From the NCBI RefSeq assembly GCF_044647545.1, contig NZ_CP172818.1: a stretch of DNA of 64,000 nucleotides. One strand, written 5' to 3'. Positions within the stretch are counted from its first letter, which is position 1. Each line of letters opens with the position of its first letter. A program made the translations under genes and the position numbers. Below the pieces are notes generated by a model. The model made no database searches and was not told the origin of the DNA. It was given only the letters and a program-made list of their open reading frames with translations. The DNA comes from Escherichia coli (GTDB lineage: Bacteria > Pseudomonadota > Gammaproteobacteria > Enterobacterales > Enterobacteriaceae). This document shows, one piece after another, positions 1 through 64,000 of the stretch.

Positions 1-604
1 TTTGCCGCACTGTCGGTTCGATCAAATCTGCCCCGCGGACAATTTCGCTCACGCCCTGGAAGTGATCATCCACCACCACCGCCAGGTTATAGGCAAACAA
101 ACCATCACGGCGATGAATAATAAAATCTTCCCGTGCCAGTTTTTCGTCGGCGTGAATAATGCCTCGCAGCAGGTCAGTAAACTGGGTGACCGGATGCTGC
201 TGGCGGATACGTACTGCGGCGTTGTCTGGTCCATGATGCAAATCCCGGCAATGACCGTCGTAAATACCGCCAATGCTTTGAATACGCGCACGCGTGCAGG
301 TGCAGTAATAACTTAGTCCTTGCTCATGTAACCAGGCGAGTGCTTCGCGATAGGCGTGGTGACGTTGCGATTGCCAGAGAACGTCGCCGTCCCAGTGCAG
401 GCCGTAATGTTCCAGCTGGCGCAGGATAGTCTCTGCGGCACCGGGAACTTCACGAGGCGGGTCGATATCTTCTATGCGTACCAGCCAGAGACCTTGCCGG
501 GCGCGAGCCTGTAAATAGCTGCCAAGCGCGGCAATCAGAGAGCCAAAATGAAGCTCGCCGGAAGGAGAGGGGGCGAAGCGACCAATATAGTGTGTGTCTG
601 TCAT
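1..604 (-). CDS. gluQ: glutamyl-Q tRNA(Asp) synthetase, N-terminal ~200 codons; 3' end lies beyond window start
   Basis: Reverse-strand translation from ATG (revcomp of 602-604) gives [38 protein letters not shown]; frame still reads GluQ-like (..[32 protein letters not shown]) at window edge. Confidence 0.85.
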
Positions 605-670
605 CTCTTTGAACAAAAAATAAGGCGGGAGCATTTCCCGCCTGTGGTAAACGTGATGGAACGGCTGTAA

Positions 671-1126
671 TTAGCCAGCCATTTGTTTTTCGCGAATTTC
701 AGCCAGCGTTTTGCAGTCGATGCACAGATCGGCTGTCGGGCGCGCTTCCAGACGGCGAATACCAATTTCAACACCGCAGGACTCGCAGTAGCCGAAATCT
801 TCGTCTTCCACTTTTTTCAGCGTCTTCTCGATCTTTTTGATCAGCTTACGCTCGCGATCGCGGTTACGCAGTTCGAGGCTGAACTCTTCTTCCTGGGCTG
901 CACGGTCTACCGGGTCCGGGAAGTTGGCTGCTTCATCCTGCATATGTGTAACGGTGCGATCGACTTCATCCCTGAGTTGATTACGCCATGCTTCCAGAAT
1001 ACGACGGAAGTGCGCCAGCTGGGCTTCATTCATATACTCTTCGCCCGGCTTCTCCTGATATGGCTCCACCCCAGCGATGGCGAGAATACTCAGGGACGAT
1101 GTTTTACGGTTTTGCCCTTCTTGCAT
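671..1126 (-). CDS. dksA: RNA polymerase-binding transcription factor DksA (151 aa)
   Basis: ORF 671..1144(-) contains [19 protein letters not shown]...C4 zinc finger [25 protein letters not shown]; ATG at 1124-1126 preceded by GGAG RBS. Confidence 0.95.
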
Positions 1127-1303
1127 GTTGCTTCTCCTTAACACGCACTATCGATCCCCATGTTCGGGGGAAAAATGAGGCCGCTATAAATAGCAGATGC
1201 TTTTCCGGATAGCAATTATCTAAACGTAACACTTGACAACTGTGTGAGGAAAAGCGTATTTGCGCACGCGACCAGAATGTAAATTAACCAGTTACTTACT
1301 CTA

Positions 1304-2553
<1,250 letters not shown>

Positions 2554-2626
2554 GTGAGGCACTCGGTTATGAATTACCGCGATGCTACAATGTGGCGCGA
2601 AGAATGTTAACCCTCTGGAGCGTTTT

Positions 2627-5056
2627 GTGTCGTCGTTGCCCGTTGCTGCCGTCTTACCTGAGTTACTTGCTGCCCTCGATGGTGCATCGCAGGTGTTATT
2701 AAGTGCGCCGACCGGGGCCGGGAAATCAACCTGGCTGCCGCTGCAACTGCTGGCGCATCCAGGCATTAACGGGAAAGTTATCCTGCTGGAGCCGCGTCGT
2801 CTGGCGGCGCGTAACGTTGCGCAACGACTGGCGGAGCTGCTTAACGAAAAGCCAGGCGATACCGTTGGCTACCGGATGCGTGCGCAAAACTGCGTCGGGC
2901 CGAATACCCGCCTGGAAGTGGTTACCGAAGGCGTGCTGACGCGGATGATCCAGCGTGACCCGGAACTGAGCGGTGTTGGATTGGTGATCCTTGATGAATT
3001 TCATGAGCGCAGCTTGCAGGCGGATTTGGCGTTGGCGCTGTTACTCGATGTGCAACAAGGTCTGCGTGATGACCTTAAACTGCTGATTATGTCGGCTACG
3101 CTGGACAACGACCGCTTGCAGCAAATGCTGCCAGAAGCGCCCGTCATCATCTCAGAAGGGCGCTCGTTTCCGGTTGAACGCCGTTATTTACCGCTGCCCG
3201 CGCATCAGCGTTTTGACGAAGCCGTTGCGGTAGCCACCGCCGAAATGCTGCGTCAGGAAAGCGGATCATTACTGTTATTTTTACCTGGCGTCGGAGAAAT
3301 TCAGCGTGTGCAGGAACAACTGGCTTCGCGCATCGGCAGTGATGTGTTGCTCTGCCCGCTGTATGGCGCGTTGTCGCTGAACGATCAGCGAAAAGCGATC
3401 CTCCCGGCACCGCAAGGGATGCGCAAAGTGGTGCTGGCGACCAATATTGCTGAAACCAGTTTAACCATTGAAGGTATTCGTCTGGTGGTGGATTGTGCCC
3501 AGGAGAGGGTGGCGCGTTTTGATCCGCGTACAGGGCTTACGCGGTTGATTACTCAACGCGTTAGTCAGGCGTCGATGACGCAACGTGCCGGGCGTGCCGG
3601 GCGTCTGGAGCCGGGTATCTGCCTGCATTTAATCGCCAAAGAACAAGCCGAACGCGCCGCGGCGCAAAGTGAACCGGAAATATTACAAAGCGATCTCTCC
3701 GGTTTGCTGATGGAATTACTGCAATGGGGATGCAGCGATCCTGCGCAGATGAGCTGGCTGGATCAACCGCCAACGGTGAATCTACTGGCCGCGAAACGCC
3801 TGTTACGGATGCTGGGGGCGCTGGACGGTGAACGGCTTAGTGCGCAAGGGCAAAAAATGGCAGCGCTGGGTAACGATCCGCGTTTAGCGGCAATGCTGGT
3901 TAGCGCGAAGAACGACGACGAAGCTGCTACCGCGGCAAAAATTGCCGCCATTCTCGAAGAGCCGCCACGGATGGGCAATAGTGACCTGGGCGTGGCGTTT
4001 TCGCGCAATCAACCCGCCTGGCAGCAACGTAGTCAGCAACTGTTAAAACGCTTAAACGTACGCGGCGGTGAGGCAGACAGTTCGCTTATCGCGCCGCTAC
4101 TTGCCAGAGCGTATGCCGATCGCATTGCTCGTCGCCGTGGGCAAGATGGACGCTATCAACTGGCGAACGGCATGGGGGCGATGCTCGATGCCGACGATGC
4201 GCTAAGCCGCCACGAATGGTTGATCGCACCGTTATTATTGCAGGGCAGCGCCTCGCCGGATGCGCGGATTTTACTGGCGCTACCGGTCGATATTGATGAG
4301 TTAGTACAACGCTGCCCGCAGCTGGTACAGCAATCGGACACCGTGGAGTGGGATGACGCGCAAGGTACGCTGAAAGCCTGGCGTCGGCTGCAAATCGGTC
4401 AGTTGATGGTGAAAGTGCAGCCACTGGCGAAACCCTCGGAAGACGAGTTGCATCAGGCGATGCTTAACGGCATTCGTGATAAAGGTTTAAGCGTGCTCAA
4501 CTGGACGGCGGAAGCGGAACAGTTACGCTTGCGTTTGTTATGCGCCGCAAAGTGGTTGCCGGAATATGACTGGCCAGCGGTTGATGATGAGAGTTTGTTG
4601 GCGACGCTGGAAACGTGGCTACTGCCGCATATGACAGGCGTACATTCGCTACGCGGCTTGAAATCACTCGATATTTATCAGGCACTGCGTGGATTACTTG
4701 ATTGGGTAATGCAGCAACGTCTGGATAGTGAATTGCCTGCGCATTACACTGTGCCGACGGGAAGCCGGATCGCCATTCGTTATCATGAAGATAACCCGCC
4801 CGCGCTGGCGGTGAGAATGCAGGAGATGTTTGGCGAGGCCACCAATCCGATGATCGCCCAGGGGCGCGTGCCGCTGGTGCTGGAGTTGCTTTCCCCTGCC
4901 CAAAGGCCGCTGCAAATCACGCGTGATTTGAGCGCCTTCTGGAAAGGAGCGTACCGTGAGGTGCAAAAAGAGATGAAAGGGCGTTATCCCAAACATGTCT
5001 GGCCGGACGACCCGGCAAACACCGCACCGACGCGACGAACGAAAAAGTATTCGTGA
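2627..5056 (+). CDS. hrpB: ATP-dependent RNA helicase HrpB (DEAH-box), ~809 aa
   Basis: Walker A SAPTGAGKST, DEFH motif (ILDEFHERS), SAT motif; probable GTG start at 2627 (VSSLPVAAVLPELL), ORF track start 2582 is an extension. Confidence 0.9.
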   Translation: MSSLPVAAVLPELLAALDGASQVLLSAPTGAGKSTWLPLQLLAHPGINGKVILLEPRRLAARNVAQRLAELLNEKPGDTVGYRMRAQNCVGPNTRLEVVTEGVLTRMIQRDPELSGVGLVILDEFHERSLQADLALALLLDVQQGLRDDLKLLIMSATLDNDRLQQMLPEAPVIISEGRSFPVERRYLPLPAHQRFDEAVAVATAEMLRQESGSLLLFLPGVGEIQRVQEQLASRIGSDVLLCPLYGALSLNDQRKAILPAPQGMRKVVLATNIAETSLTIEGIRLVVDCAQERVARFDPRTGLTRLITQRVSQASMTQRAGRAGRLEPGICLHLIAKEQAERAAAQSEPEILQSDLSGLLMELLQWGCSDPAQMSWLDQPPTVNLLAAKRLLRMLGALDGERLSAQGQKMAALGNDPRLAAMLVSAKNDDEAATAAKIAAILEEPPRMGNSDLGVAFSRNQPAWQQRSQQLLKRLNVRGGEADSSLIAPLLARAYADRIARRRGQDGRYQLANGMGAMLDADDALSRHEWLIAPLLLQGSASPDARILLALPVDIDELVQRCPQLVQQSDTVEWDDAQGTLKAWRRLQIGQLMVKVQPLAKPSEDELHQAMLNGIRDKGLSVLNWTAEAEQLRLRLLCAAKWLPEYDWPAVDDESLLATLETWLLPHMTGVHSLRGLKSLDIYQALRGLLDWVMQQRLDSELPAHYTVPTGSRIAIRYHEDNPPALAVRMQEMFGEATNPMIAQGRVPLVLELLSPAQRPLQITRDLSAFWKGAYREVQKEMKGRYPKHVWPDDPANTAPTRRTKKYS

Positions 5057-5149
5057 AGACCAAAGCAAATTTGAGAGATATCTTCTTCTGTCTTGCAACA
5101 GAAGAACAGAAAATCGGGCTTTTGCGCCTGAATATTGCGGAGAAAAAGC

Positions 5150-7684
5150 ATGGCCGGGAATGACCGCGAGCCAATTGGACGCAAAGGGAAACCGACGCGT
5201 CCGGTCAAACAAAAGGTAAGCCGTCGTCGTTACGAAGATGACGATGATTACGACGATTATGATGACTATGAGGATGAAGAACCGATGCCGCGCAAAGGTA
5301 AGGGCAAAGGCAAAGGGCGTAAGCCTCGTGGCAAACGCGGCTGGCTATGGCTGCTGCTAAAACTGGCTATCGTTTTTGCCGTGCTGATCGCCATTTACGG
5401 CGTTTATCTCGATCAAAAAATTCGCAGCCGTATTGATGGCAAGGTCTGGCAATTGCCCGCGGCAGTTTATGGCCGAATGGTCAACCTTGAGCCAGACATG
5501 ACCATCAGCAAGAACGAGATGGTGAAGCTGCTGGAGGCGACCCAGTATCGTCAGGTGTCGAAAATGACCCGTCCTGGCGAATTTACCGTGCAGGCCAACA
5601 GCATTGAGATGATCCGCCGTCCGTTTGATTTCCCGGACAGTAAAGAAGGGCAGGTGCGTGCACGTCTGACCTTTGATGGCGATCATCTGGCGACGATCGT
5701 CAATATGGAGAACAACCGTCAGTTCGGTTTCTTCCGTCTTGATCCGCGCCTGATCACTATGATCTCTTCACCAAACGGTGAGCAACGTCTGTTTGTGCCG
5801 CGCAGTGGTTTCCCGGATCTGCTGGTGGATACTTTGCTGGCAACAGAAGACCGTCATTTTTACGAGCATGATGGGATCAGTCTCTACTCCATCGGACGTG
5901 CGGTGCTGGCAAACCTGACCGCCGGACGCACGGTGCAGGGGGCGAGTACGCTGACGCAACAGCTGGTGAAAAACCTGTTCCTCTCCAGCGAGCGTTCTTA
6001 CTGGCGTAAAGCGAACGAAGCCTACATGGCGCTGATCATGGACGCGCGTTACAGCAAAGACCGTATTCTTGAGCTGTATATGAACGAGGTGTATCTCGGT
6101 CAGAGCGGCGACAACGAAATCCGCGGCTTCCCGCTGGCGAGCTTGTATTACTTTGGTCGCCCGGTAGAAGAATTGAGCCTCGATCAGCAGGCGCTGTTGG
6201 TGGGTATGGTGAAAGGGGCGTCCATCTACAACCCGTGGCGTAACCCGAAACTGGCGCTGGAGCGACGTAACCTGGTGCTACGTCTGCTGCAACAGCAACA
6301 GATTATTGATCAAGAACTCTATGACATGTTGAGTGCACGTCCGCTGGGTGTTCAGCCGCGCGGTGGGGTGATCTCTCCTCAGCCAGCCTTTATGCAACTG
6401 GTGCGTCAGGAGCTGCAGGCGAAATTAGGCGATAAGGTAAAAGATCTCTCCGGCGTGAAGATCTTCACTACCTTTGACTCGGTGGCCCAGGACGCGGCAG
6501 AAAAAGCCGCCGTGGAAGGCATTCCGGCACTGAAGAAACAGCGTAAGTTGAGCGATCTGGAAACCGCGATTGTGGTCGTCGACCGCTTTAGTGGTGAAGT
6601 TCGTGCGATGGTCGGTGGTTCTGAGCCGCAGTTTGCGGGCTACAACCGTGCGATGCAGGCGCGTCGTTCGATTGGTTCTCTTGCAAAACCAGCGACTTAT
6701 CTGACGGCCTTAAGCCAGCCGAAAATCTATCGCCTGAACACGTGGATTGCCGATGCGCCAATCGCGCTGCGTCAGCCGAATGGCCAGGTCTGGTCACCGC
6801 AGAACGATGACCGTCGTTATAGCGAAAGTGGCAGAGTGATGCTGGTGGATGCGTTGACCCGTTCGATGAACGTGCCGACGGTAAATCTGGGGATGGCGCT
6901 GGGGCTGCCTGCGGTTACGGAGACCTGGATTAAACTGGGCGTACCGAAAGATCAGCTGCATCCGGTTCCGGCGATGCTGCTGGGGGCGTTGAACTTAACG
7001 CCAATCGAAGTGGCGCAGGCATTCCAGACTATCGCCAGCGGCGGTAACCGTGCACCGCTTTCTGCGCTGCGTTCGGTAATTGCGGAAGATGGCAAAGTGC
7101 TGTATCAGAGCTTCCCGCAGGCGGAACGCGCGGTTCCGGCGCAGGCGGCGTATCTGACACTATGGACCATGCAGCAGGTGGTACAACGTGGTACGGGGCG
7201 TCAGCTTGGGGCGAAATACCCGAACCTGCATCTGGCAGGGAAAACAGGGACTACCAACAATAACGTAGATACCTGGTTTGCGGGCATTGACGGCAGCACG
7301 GTGACCATCACCTGGGTAGGCCGTGATAACAACCAGCCGACCAAACTGTATGGAGCCAGCGGGGCAATGTCGATTTATCAGCGTTATCTGGCTAACCAGA
7401 CGCCAACACCGCTGAATCTTGTTCCGCCAGAAGATATTGCAGATATGGGCGTGGACTACGACGGCAACTTTGTTTGCAGCGGTGGCATGCGTGTCTTGCC
7501 GGTCTGGACCAGCGATCCGCAATCGCTGTGCCAGCAGAGTGAGATTCAGCAGCAACCGTCAGGCAATCCGTTTGATCAGTCTTCTCAGCCGCAGCAACAA
7601 CCGCAACAGCAACCTGCTCAGCAAGAGCAGAAAGACAGCGACGGTGTAGCTGGTTGGATCAAGGATATGTTTGGTAGTAATTAA
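5150..7684 (+). CDS. mrcB: penicillin-binding protein 1B (bifunctional glycosyltransferase/transpeptidase), 844 aa
   Basis: [19 protein letters not shown]..., acidic [15 protein letters not shown] tract, TM segment, GT motif [12 protein letters not shown] motifs, Q-rich C-terminus. Confidence 0.95.
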
Positions 7685-7903: not shown

Positions 7904-10087
7904 ATGGCGCGTTCCAAAACTGCTCAGCCAAAACACTCACTGCGTAAAATCGCAGTTGTAGTAGCCACAGCGGTTAGCGGCATGTCTGTTTATGCACAGG
8001 CAGCGGTTGAACCGAAAGAAGACACTATCACCGTTACCGCTGCACCTGCGCCGCAAGAAAGCGCATGGGGGCCAGCTGCAACTATTGCGGCGAAGCACTC
8101 TGCTACTGCGACTAAAACGGATACACCAATTGAAAAAACGCCGCAGTCTATTTCGGTTGTGACAAATGAAGAGATGCAGATGCATCAATTTCAGTCTGTA
8201 AAAGAAGCATTAGGTTATACACCTGGCGTTACAGTTAGCAGTCGTGGTGCTTCTAATACATATGATTTTGTTATCATTCGTGGTTTCTCATCTGTTGGCC
8301 TGAATCAAAATAACTACCTTGATGGACTAAAACTTCAGGGCAACTTTTATAACGATGCTGTGATTGATCCTTACATGCTCGAGAGGGTTGAACTGATGCG
8401 TGGGCCGACGTCTGTTCTCTATGGAAAAAGTAATCCTGGTGGGATTATTTCTATGGTGAGTAAGCGCCCGACCACTGACCCCCTGAAAGAAATTCAGTTT
8501 AAAATGGGGACGGATAATCTGTTTCAGACCGGATTCGATTTCAGTGATGCGCTGGATGATAACGGTGAGTTCTCCTACCGTTTGACTGGCCTCGCTCGCT
8601 CAACAAACGAACAGCAGAAAAACTCTGAATCTCAGCGTTATACCATTGCTCCATCATTCTCATGGCGGCCGGACGACAAAACCAATTTAACTTTCCTGTC
8701 CTATTTCCAGAATGAACCAGAAACGGGTTATTACGGTTGGTTGCCGAAAGAGGGGACCGTTGAGCCATTGCCTAATGGTAAGCGTCTACCGACTGACTTC
8801 AATGAAGGTGCGTCGAATAATACATACTCCCGTAACCAGAAAATGGTGGGATATAGTTTTGAACATGGTTTTAATGACACCTTCACCGTGCGTCAGAATC
8901 TGCGTTTCAGTGAAATGAAAACCTCACAGAAAAGTGTTTATGGCCACAGGGATTGCCAGCGATGGTCATACCCTAAACCGCGGGACAGTGGTGGATAATG
9001 AGCGTCTACAAAACTTTAGCGTTGATACCCAACTTGAAAGTAAGTTTGCTACAGGTGACGTCGGGCATACTTTGCTGACAGGGGTAGACTTCATGCGTAT
9101 GCGCAATGATATCAATGCCAGCTTTGGATCTGCACCATCCATCGATCTTTATAACAAATACCATCCTGAATACTTTGCATTTGGTAGCGCAGAGCCATAC
9201 CAGATGAATGAAAGCAAACAAACAGGTATTTATGTTCAGGATCAGGCGGAATGGAATAAATGGGTATTCACTCTGGGGGGGCGCTACGATTGGTCTAAGC
9301 AAGCGACCAAAAACTCTTATACGCCGACTGAAGGTTATATTGAGCGCAATGATCATCAGTTCACCTGGCGCGGTGGTGTAAATTACTTATTCGATAATGG
9401 TATTTCACCTTACTTTAGCTATAGCCAGTCCTTTGAACCGAGTGCTTTCGATCTGGGAACAAGCAACCCGCGCGTTTCCTATAAGCCATCGAAAGGTGAA
9501 CAGTATGAAGCTGGCGTAAAATATGTTCCGAATGATATGCCGGTCGTTGTTACGGGCGCAGTCTATCAATTGACGAAAACAAATAACCTGACAGCAGACC
9601 CAACAAACCCCATTAGCGAAGTCCCGCAGGTGAGATTCGCGCTCGTGGTGTGGAACTTGAAGCAAAAGCGGCGTTAAATGCCAATATTAACTTGACGGCT
9701 TCTTATACCTACACCGATGCGGAATACACCAAAGACACCAATCTCAAAGGTAAAACTCCAGAACAAGTACCGAAGCATATGGCATCTCTCTGGGGGGATT
9801 ATACCTTCAATGAAGGGCCGTTTTCTGGTTTAACATTGGGAACAGGTGGTCGTTTTATTGGTTCCAGCTATGGTGATCCGGCGAACACTTTTAAAGTGGG
9901 TAGCGCAGCTGTAATGGATGCTGTTGTAAAATATGATCTGGCACGCTTTGGTATGGCGGGATCCAGCCTTGCTGTGAACGTCAACAATTTGCTCGATCGT
10001 GAGTATGTTGCCAGTTGCTTCCAGACCTATGGCTGCTTCTGGGGCGCAGAACGTCAGGTCGTTGCAACCGCAACCTTCCGTTTCTAA
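7904..10087 (+). pseudogene. fhuA: ferrichrome outer-membrane transporter FhuA (TonB-dependent receptor), reading frame interrupted by two frameshifts
   Basis: Three consecutive ORFs (7904..8998, 8934..9677, 9650..10087) each translate to FhuA-like sequence; ORF1 and ORF3 share a frame, ORF2 is +1; junctions at ~8945-8957 and ~9629-9630. Confidence 0.85.
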
Positions 10088-56031: not shown

Positions 56032-56061
56032 CCCGTCTTGAGACAGAAACAAATGAAATAT

Positions 56062-56162
56062 TGCCTCATGCGCTGCGCTTATCAGGCCTAAAGCATACAA
56101 TGCAATATTTTGAATTAGCACAATTTTGTAGGCCGGATAAGGCGTTCACGCCGCATCCGGCA
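56062..56162. repeat. BIME: two palindromic units (REP) between convergent nlpE and yaeF
   Basis: tgcctcatgcgctgcgcttatcaggcctaaag ... gtaggccggataaggcgttcacgccgcatccggca. Confidence 0.8.
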
Positions 56163-56186
56163 TTTTGCGCACGAGGCTGGCTTTTA

Positions 56187-63776: not shown

Positions 63777-64000
63777 AAATTGAAGAGTTTGATCATGGCT
63801 CAGATTGAACGCTGGCGGCAGGCCTAACACATGCAAGTCGAACGGTAACAGGAATCAGCTTGCTGATTCGCTGACGAGTGGCGGACGGGTGAGTAATGTC
63901 TGGGAAACTGCCTGATGGAGGGGGATAACTACTGGAAACGGTAGCTAATACCGCATAACGTCGCAAGACCAAAGAGGGGGACCTTCGGGCCTCTTGCCAT
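63777..64000 (+). rRNA. rrsH: 16S ribosomal RNA, 5' 224 nt (continues beyond window)
   Basis: aaattgaagagtttgatcatggctcagattgaacgctggcggcaggcctaacacatgcaagtcgaacggtaacagga... canonical enterobacterial 16S 5' end; operon assigned as rrnH by position after gmhB. Confidence 0.95.

Follow-up and report, generated by a model that had tools for sequence, protein, structure and literature searches.

The stretch of DNA analysed here, referred to as the window, is 64 kb of an Escherichia coli chromosome which runs from gluQ to the start of rrsH in the MG1655 gene order, and the locus of interest is the spacer between hrpB and mrcB. This spacer occupies positions 5057-5149, between the hrpB stop codon and the mrcB ATG, and measures the 93 nt which had been given for it in a preceding sequence-only reading. 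The inverted repeat that had been described in it is also present, with its end at 5106 instead of the 5104 then written. The features of the locus are listed below.

5054..5056, plus strand: hrpB stop codon, TGA in the window and TAA in the BoxC-bearing alleles
5057..5066, no strand assigned: empty insertion site AGACCAAAGC, whose K-12 counterpart is GGTTG plus an inverted BoxC pair of ~107 nt
5067..5149, plus strand: conserved mrcB upstream region, 83 nt, no indels, 91% mean column identity
5071..5076, plus strand: TTGAGA, -35 hexamer of the RpoD SELEX promoter, invariant in 12 taxa
5083..5106, plus strand: inverted repeat of 9 bp, arms TTCTTCTGT (5083-5091) and ACAGAAGAA (5098-5106), 6-nt loop CTTGCA
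5094..5099, plus strand: TGCAAC, proposed -10 (TGTAAC in K-12), not conserved in Citrobacter, unlike the hairpin stems
5114..5131, plus strand: second predicted hairpin UCGGGC-UUUUGC-GCCUGA, stems 5114-5119 and 5126-5131, with a G.U to A-U change in Citrobacter
5139..5142, plus strand: Shine-Dalgarno GGAG, read directly, 7 nt before the mrcB ATG (5150)

The region upstream of mrcB was aligned over 87 columns (5066-5152) in 12 taxa of Escherichia, Citrobacter and Intestinirhabdus, and the stretch from TTGAGAGAT to the mrcB ATG was free of indels in all twelve. As read from the sequence, the inverted repeat pairs TTCTTCTG (5083-5090) with CAGAAGAA (5099-5106), and an extra T-A pair lengthens it to 9 bp. 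According to our own arithmetic, a perfect 8-bp inverted repeat with a short loop is expected by chance ~0.01 times per 93 nt, and this one is kept in 12/12 taxa compared. The RpoD SELEX promoter TTGAGA-17-TGTAAC has been assigned to the hrpB-mrcB spacer (Shimada et al. 2014, PMC3946193), with a proposed -10 which extends from the loop of the inverted repeat into the first two bases of the 3' arm; a literature search for an experimentally mapped mrcB start site gave only this SELEX prediction. In both hairpins, 99.4% of the cells were paired across 11 distinct sequences, and the four variable pairs displayed one-sided changes to U.G or from G.U to A-U (E. albertii, Citrobacter, Intestinirhabdus) which, as they keep the pairs, fit RNA pairing on the plus strand. 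No compensatory double change was seen in the two hairpins among these 11 sequences, the shuffle control being uninformative, and the fold of the whole 93-nt spacer was not better than that of shuffled sequences (z -0.86). A simple consensus scan for promoters and terminators over 4950-5250 gave nothing, with no recognisable intrinsic hrpB terminator in the window spacer, and a search of 4800-5400 against Rfam at a permissive threshold returned no curated model match to the spacer. A MicF match inside mrcB, on the minus strand, was dismissed as chance (E 0.99, 22 bits vs a gathering score of 79). At the level of sequence comparison, the two conserved hairpins upstream of mrcB are suggestive of a functional leader RNA structure or of an operator.

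For comparison with K-12, MG1655 (NC_000913.3, 158,000-228,000, with its annotation) was aligned to the window, and the mapping of 62 K-12 genes gave 61 adjacent spacers to be compared. Megablast returned seven collinear blocks (block identity 92.5-99.4%) and six breaks, five of them at the spacers named in the sequence-only reading and the sixth inside fhuA. Spacer length was the same in 54/61 cases, differed by 1 nt in yaeF-proS and proS-trmO, and differed by more than 1 nt in the following five.

hrpB-mrcB spacer: 195 nt in MG1655 vs 93 nt in the window (-102)
cdaR-yaeH spacer: 88 nt in MG1655 vs 54 nt in the window (-34)
rpsB-tsf spacer: 257 nt in MG1655 vs 129 nt in the window (-128)
pyrH-frr spacer: 291 nt in MG1655 vs 145 nt in the window (-146)
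nlpE-yaeF spacer: 199 nt in MG1655 vs 155 nt in the window (-44)

These are the five spacers which had been said to be shorter than in K-12, and gene mapping confirms all of them as the sole differences above 1 nt among the 61. A whole-window alignment to MG1655 had been proposed as the check; in that alignment the lengths do differ, and the statement on K-12 spacing was right at every named spacer. The gene order is likewise that of K-12, as had been stated, and the supposed non-K-12 lineage agrees with the nearest relatives, which are ST648-type strains. The statement that gene lengths equal those of K-12 throughout fails at fhuA, which is frameshifted and measures 2184 vs 2244 nt.

The K-12 surplus at hrpB-mrcB amounts to ~107 nt (GTTTTCT-CCCTCTCCCTGTGGGAGAGGGCCGGGGTGAGGGC...ACCCTCACCCTAACCCTCTCCCTCAAGGGAGAGGG-GACCGATCGAGCACA) and is made up of two BoxC (PIT/TMECO/HPGQ) motifs, one inverted relative to the other. 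The BoxC/TMECO pattern CCCTCNCCC-N3-6-GGGNGAGGG-N3-GGGNGAGGG (Holder et al. 2015, PMC4666352) has two matches in the K-12 spacer, on opposite strands (K-12 record L001, 6548-6580 on the plus strand and 6599-6632 on the minus strand), and 0 matches on both strands of the 64-kb window. The two K-12 matches correspond to TMECO no. 1 (type B, 164,547-164,580) and no. 2 (type A, 164,631-164,597) at their published MG1655 coordinates (Holder et al. 2015 Table 1, PMC4666352). TMECO is the BoxC repeat of the 1990s and equals the PIT (potential intrastrand triplex) elements of Maher's group (Holder et al. 2015, PMC4666352), and the motifs at hrpB-mrcB are also HPGQ no. 5 and 6, candidates for hairpin/G-quadruplex formation (Kaplan et al. 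2016, PMC5100583). The pair forms a single long palindromic fold (-74 kcal/mol, z -7.5), and the K-12 surplus elements all fold as long palindromes, with z-scores from -4.1 to -7.5. Earlier work on BoxC/PIT was reportedly done by Bergler in 1992 and by Hoyne and Maher in 2000.

When the K-12 surplus was used as a megablast query, it was found at 1-6 places per genome. A second full-length BoxC pair of ~107 nt, 94.5% identical and with the same sharp ends, lies in the phnE-phnD spacer of strain JSWP006 (L003 1501-1608), and this second copy with sharp boundaries implies that the BoxC composite has been dispersed as a unit. The pair is hence an intergenic, multi-copy and dispersed element. The REP core GCC(G/T)GATG(C/A)G(G/A)CG, with one mismatch allowed, is present in the hrpB-mrcB spacer of neither the window nor K-12.

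The distribution of both forms was then followed in complete E. coli genomes. A K-12 query spanning the BoxC element was covered at >=80% in 3,536 of the 5,426 genomes (65%), and a 46-nt query of the empty junction was found in 1,470 of them (at least 27%; 1,466 at >=99% identity), SE15 and Seattle 1946 included. Positions 4000-6500 of the window were 100.0% identical to all 30 records among the matches listed, ST648-named strains included, which together with the occurrence of the junction in 1,470 genomes implies that the 93-nt spacer is no assembly quirk. At least three hrpB-mrcB alleles coexist in E. coli, namely an empty one of 93 nt (window, ETEC4077), a collapsed one of 131 nt (O111:NM 08-4377, L015) and the full pair of 195 nt (K-12). 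The collapsed allele equals the K-12 form minus 64 nt between two direct GGGAGAGGG repeats, with a single hairpin of 47 nt left in the slot; a 'palindrome effect' has been described for such loci (Holder et al. 2015, PMC4666352), and the 64-nt deletion is of this kind. The empty allele goes together with the TGA stop and TGCAAC, the filled one with the TAA stop and TGTAAC. The junction between both forms is not clean, as ~10 nt differ (AGACCAAAGC vs GGTTG) with no target duplication, so that neither a simple insertion nor a simple excision can be deduced from it; no clean target-site duplication was seen at three insertion junctions.

Outgroups were obtained by scanning species-representative genomes once with the mrcB start, which yielded ten loci, considered for the hrpB-mrcB spacer only. 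Their flanks are 77-93% identical to those of the window, placing these loci in separate species. E. whittamii (flanks 93% identical) has a junction identical to that of the window, and E. albertii (90.6%) a near-identical one with 4 differences, TGAAAACCAAACCGAATTTGAGAG. The collapsed 47-nt hairpin of O111 recurs as the same allele in Escherichia sp. E1V33 (L013; about 89-91% identical), where it represents a K-12-type allele with K-12-type flanks, and a different BoxC-like hairpin occupies hrpB-mrcB in a strain which is named E. coli although its identity is only 90%. In five Citrobacter genomes (L007, L008, L010, L012, L014) a REP occupies the slot just upstream of TTGAGAGAT, and in Intestinirhabdus (L011) the same slot holds a BoxC-like hairpin and another stem-loop. 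Unrelated repeats are thus found in one slot after the hrpB stop across different genera. The presence of the same 131-nt allele in two Escherichia species suggests an old polymorphism or an exchange between species.

The other four spacers that differ from MG1655 were characterized in the same way and are as follows in the window.

23981..24034, no strand assigned: cdaR-yaeH spacer, 54 nt, a single GC-rich hairpin GCCGGGUGA/UUACCCGGC between convergent genes
30926..31054, plus strand: rpsB-tsf spacer, 129 nt, without the 128-nt ERIC/IRU of K-12; hairpin GGGGGCC...GGCCCCC-T5 kept
32779..32923, plus strand: pyrH-frr spacer, 145 nt, without the ~146-149-nt RSA-like palindrome of K-12
56032..56186, no strand assigned: nlpE-yaeF spacer, 155 nt, REP cores at 56132-56144 and 56149-56161, degenerate REP at ~56062-56093

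At rpsB-tsf, the K-12 surplus of 128 nt forms one long stem-loop (z -5.6) and matches, at 38/42 positions, the ERIC core of primers ERIC1R and ERIC2, the sequences of which were confirmed in the literature; the length given for IRU in the copy-number table is 127 bp. This K-12-type allele is found in 4,095 of the 5,426 genomes (75%). At pyrH-frr, the K-12-type allele is found in 3,513 genomes (65%), and the RSA-like element that distinguishes it occurs at 5 places in the median genome (6 in several genomes with the K-12 allele), its other copies being 85-90% identical over ~115-122 nt. RSA in the original MG1655 record is 150/151 bp long with 6 copies (copy-number table), and the literature on RSA yielded nothing of use beyond this table. 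A copy ~87% identical was observed in strain C 237-04 (L004 1201-1321) between the pheM leader and pheS, which places it between the pheST attenuator region and pheS. As the similarity of the RSA-like element to ERIC is weak and central only, it was not filed as ERIC, of which it may be a relative judging by its sequence. A probe of rpsB-tsf and pyrH-frr with the exact Frr protein returned only E. coli contigs, 99+% identical, in which the common short alleles measure 134 and 149 nt.

The remaining two spacers are of another make-up. The 88-nt cdaR-yaeH spacer of K-12 contains two other hairpins, non-homologous to the one in the window, neither allele is a high-identity repeat, and the K-12 type occurs in 3,566/5,426 genomes (66%). 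This difference is an allelic swap of a terminator-like hairpin and not a repeat loss. At nlpE-yaeF, one full REP is common to both strains, the degenerate REP on the left is found in the window only, and a second full REP and a third, partial one on the right are found in K-12 only; this K-12 arrangement is present in 1,918/5,426 genomes (35%), and the nlpE-yaeF query detects REP copies at >=36 places per genome. In the window as in K-12, intergenic REP cores (regex, one mismatch) were limited to fhuB-hemL, tilS-rof and nlpE-yaeF, and three further single one-mismatch matches lie inside coding sequence, none of them near 5057-5149. The number of REPs at fhuB-hemL and tilS-rof is identical in the window and K-12, so the window lineage is not generally without REPs.

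The supposition that small intergenic repeats are lacking from the window consequently holds for four of the five spacers, where the K-12 surplus is a palindromic repeat, and not for cdaR-yaeH, where unrelated hairpins are swapped. Their assignment to the REP/BIME class applies to nlpE-yaeF and was mistaken elsewhere, where BoxC, ERIC/IRU, RSA-like and non-homologous hairpin sequences are concerned. Nor is the difference strain-specific, as had been proposed, since alleles of the window type are common among the 5,426 complete genomes. The five short spacers are an ordinary and widespread polymorphism of elements already described, and the phenomenon itself, that is polymorphism of BoxC/TMECO loci and presence/absence of ERIC and REP, has also been described before.

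The complete genome nearest to the window is FDAARGOS_497, an ST648-type strain which is 99.955% identical over 64 kb, with 3 substitutions and 10 indel events. The gene fhuA alone accounts for seven of the differing sites, six indels and one substitution, between 8944 and 9625. In the window this gene (7904-10087) has 2184 nt vs 2244 in K-12 (L001 9485-11728), being 60 nt shorter and ~74% identical, and is split by two frameshifts into ORFs 7904-8998 and 8934-9677. Relative to intact relatives of 2190 nt, it shows an additional C at 8944, a loss of 9 nt at 9309, an insertion of 3 nt accompanied by substitutions at 9456-9461 and, towards its 3' end, an additional C at 9611 and the loss of a C at 9618 and of a G at 9625. 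None of the complete genomes shares these indels (best match 99.2%), and no entry for the truncated FhuA product was found in the gene-position collection; the frameshifted fhuA is either a pseudogene or the result of sequencing errors. The middle third of FhuA has 60% protein identity to K-12, intact relatives are 18 codons shorter, and the window allele is covered at >=80% in only 562/5,426 genomes. This fhuA is a mosaic allele of the phage and colicin receptor.

Outside fhuA, the private indels (an additional C at 24032, a loss of 5 nt at 30931-30932 and a loss of GGGG at 32823) fall inside three of the five polymorphic spacers, at the repeat junctions, and are in no complete genome. The common short alleles of cdaR-yaeH, rpsB-tsf and pyrH-frr measure 53, 134 and 149 nt, vs 54, 129 and 145 nt in the window. 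Sequence-quality artefacts or private mutations are the probable origin of these small indels. The hrpB-mrcB spacer is unaffected by them, and many genomes have it in identical form. The window stops within the 16S rRNA gene rrsH (63777-64000), and one of the three substitutions relative to the nearest genome, at 63679, lies just upstream of it.

The private indels in fhuA and at 24032, 30931 and 32823, together with the 3 substitutions over 64 kb, put the quality of the sequence in question, and it could be argued that assembly or sequencing produced the short spacers artificially, by collapsing or skipping long palindromes. However, the corresponding spacers of FDAARGOS_497, an independent complete genome, measure 93, 53, 134, 149 and 155 nt, and short alleles are found in thousands of genomes. 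An artefact could explain no more than 1-5 nt in three spacers, and is hardly credible as the origin of the short spacers. The proposal that this strain specifically lacks the REP/BIME elements that K-12 carries in these spacers has in its favour the different REP content of nlpE-yaeF in K-12 and the window and the >=36 REP-type places per genome returned by the nlpE-yaeF query. It is refuted for four of the five spacers, since hrpB-mrcB has no REP core and the K-12 surplus is BoxC at that locus, ERIC at rpsB-tsf, RSA-like at pyrH-frr and unique sequence at cdaR-yaeH; moreover, the short alleles are common to 25-65% of genomes. As an explanation of the five spacers it is considered highly improbable.

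A loss of another kind has to be weighed at hrpB-mrcB, where the window lineage could once have carried the BoxC pair and then deleted it as an unstable triplex- or hairpin-forming repeat, by replication slippage or palindrome repair. TMECO loci are unusually variable and deletion through motif instability has been favoured (Holder et al. 2015, PMC4666352), the very stable palindrome (-74 kcal/mol, z -7.5) is compatible with such behaviour, and deletion did occur at this locus elsewhere, O111 08-4377 having lost 64 nt between direct copies of GGGAGAGGG. On the other hand, nothing in the filled allele corresponds to the 10 nt of the empty allele (AGACCAAAGC), and a recent deletion would not recreate the junction that is identical in E. 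whittamii and different by only 4 positions in E. albertii. These two observations make a recent loss in the window lineage very unlikely. The co-variation of TGA/TGCAAC vs TAA/TGTAAC with the allele also points to old haplotypes, and a deletion history for the window is, on the whole, thought unlikely. The 'absence' at hrpB-mrcB, when understood as a loss, does not agree with the same empty junction being found in E. albertii and E. whittamii, the short form being more likely the older one. From the sequences compared, we infer that the empty site is more likely ancestral and that the K-12 form is a gain which has since spread or been exchanged. Since E1V33 carries a filled-type allele, the filled haplotype must likewise be old or have passed between species, and an empty root state is therefore probable rather than certain.

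Taken together, the preferred reading is that the hrpB-mrcB spacer of the window represents the allele without a repeat, or 'empty site', in a presence/absence polymorphism that was already known, to which we give a probability of about 0.85, the lineages concerned and the other spacers included. A ~107-nt palindrome separates the hrpB stop from the conserved mrcB upstream region in K-12 and in some two thirds of E. coli, whereas the slot holds only AGACCAAAGC in the window lineage (judged phylogroup F/ST648-like from its nearest relatives), as well as in B2-type strains and two further Escherichia species. The layout relevant to mrcB (TTGAGA box, inverted repeat, second hairpin and Shine-Dalgarno) is the same in all alleles, and the polymorphism most likely alters nothing but DNA that lies upstream of the mrcB promoter region. 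The same kind of ordinary variation is seen in the other four short spacers, through ERIC/IRU, the RSA-like element, REP/BIME make-up and the swap of a terminator-like hairpin, and these elements would have little effect on expression. A more speculative and unlikely proposal is that the slot between the hrpB stop and the TTGAGA box is a recurrent landing site for unrelated palindromic repeats across Enterobacteriaceae, with the 83-nt leader of invariant length and its two hairpins acting as a cis-regulatory element of PBP1b expression; the input of this leader, by hrpB read-through or upstream promoter context, could then vary between filled and empty alleles. If the BoxC pair does alter hrpB read-through or mrcB promoter context, PBP1b regulation would differ between two thirds of E. 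coli and the rest. With the repeat-free hrpB-mrcB allele shared by other Escherichia species, part of the reported BoxC/TMECO variability may be due to gain, or to an old polymorphism which recombination has spread, and not to deletion. Spacer differences from K-12 should be assigned to the right repeat family (BoxC, ERIC, RSA or REP) and not to strain-specific loss.

Compared with known repeat families, the K-12 surplus at rpsB-tsf has the imperfect palindrome of ~127 bp and the primer core of ERIC/IRU, whereas the element is absent from the rpsB-tsf spacer of the window and from 25% of complete genomes. The pyrH-frr surplus is palindromic and, at 146-149 nt and about 5-6 detectable copies per genome, fits RSA in length and copy number, by which alone the name is given here. 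REP/PU/BIME elements are found at nlpE-yaeF in both strains, with differences in number and arrangement that are typical of BIME plasticity, and a Citrobacter REP occupies the hrpB-mrcB slot; in contrast, none is present in the hrpB-mrcB, rpsB-tsf, pyrH-frr and cdaR-yaeH spacers of the window or K-12. As for the BoxC/TMECO family, the K-12 DNA missing from the window is the published inverted pair at its published coordinates, and presence/absence between strains as well as partial collapse of palindromic pairs have been published (Holder et al.). The window differs in being an empty allele, with no BoxC motif in 64 kb, and is not itself a member of the family; and whereas the published reading is one of instability and deletion, the outgroups compared here point to an old empty site.
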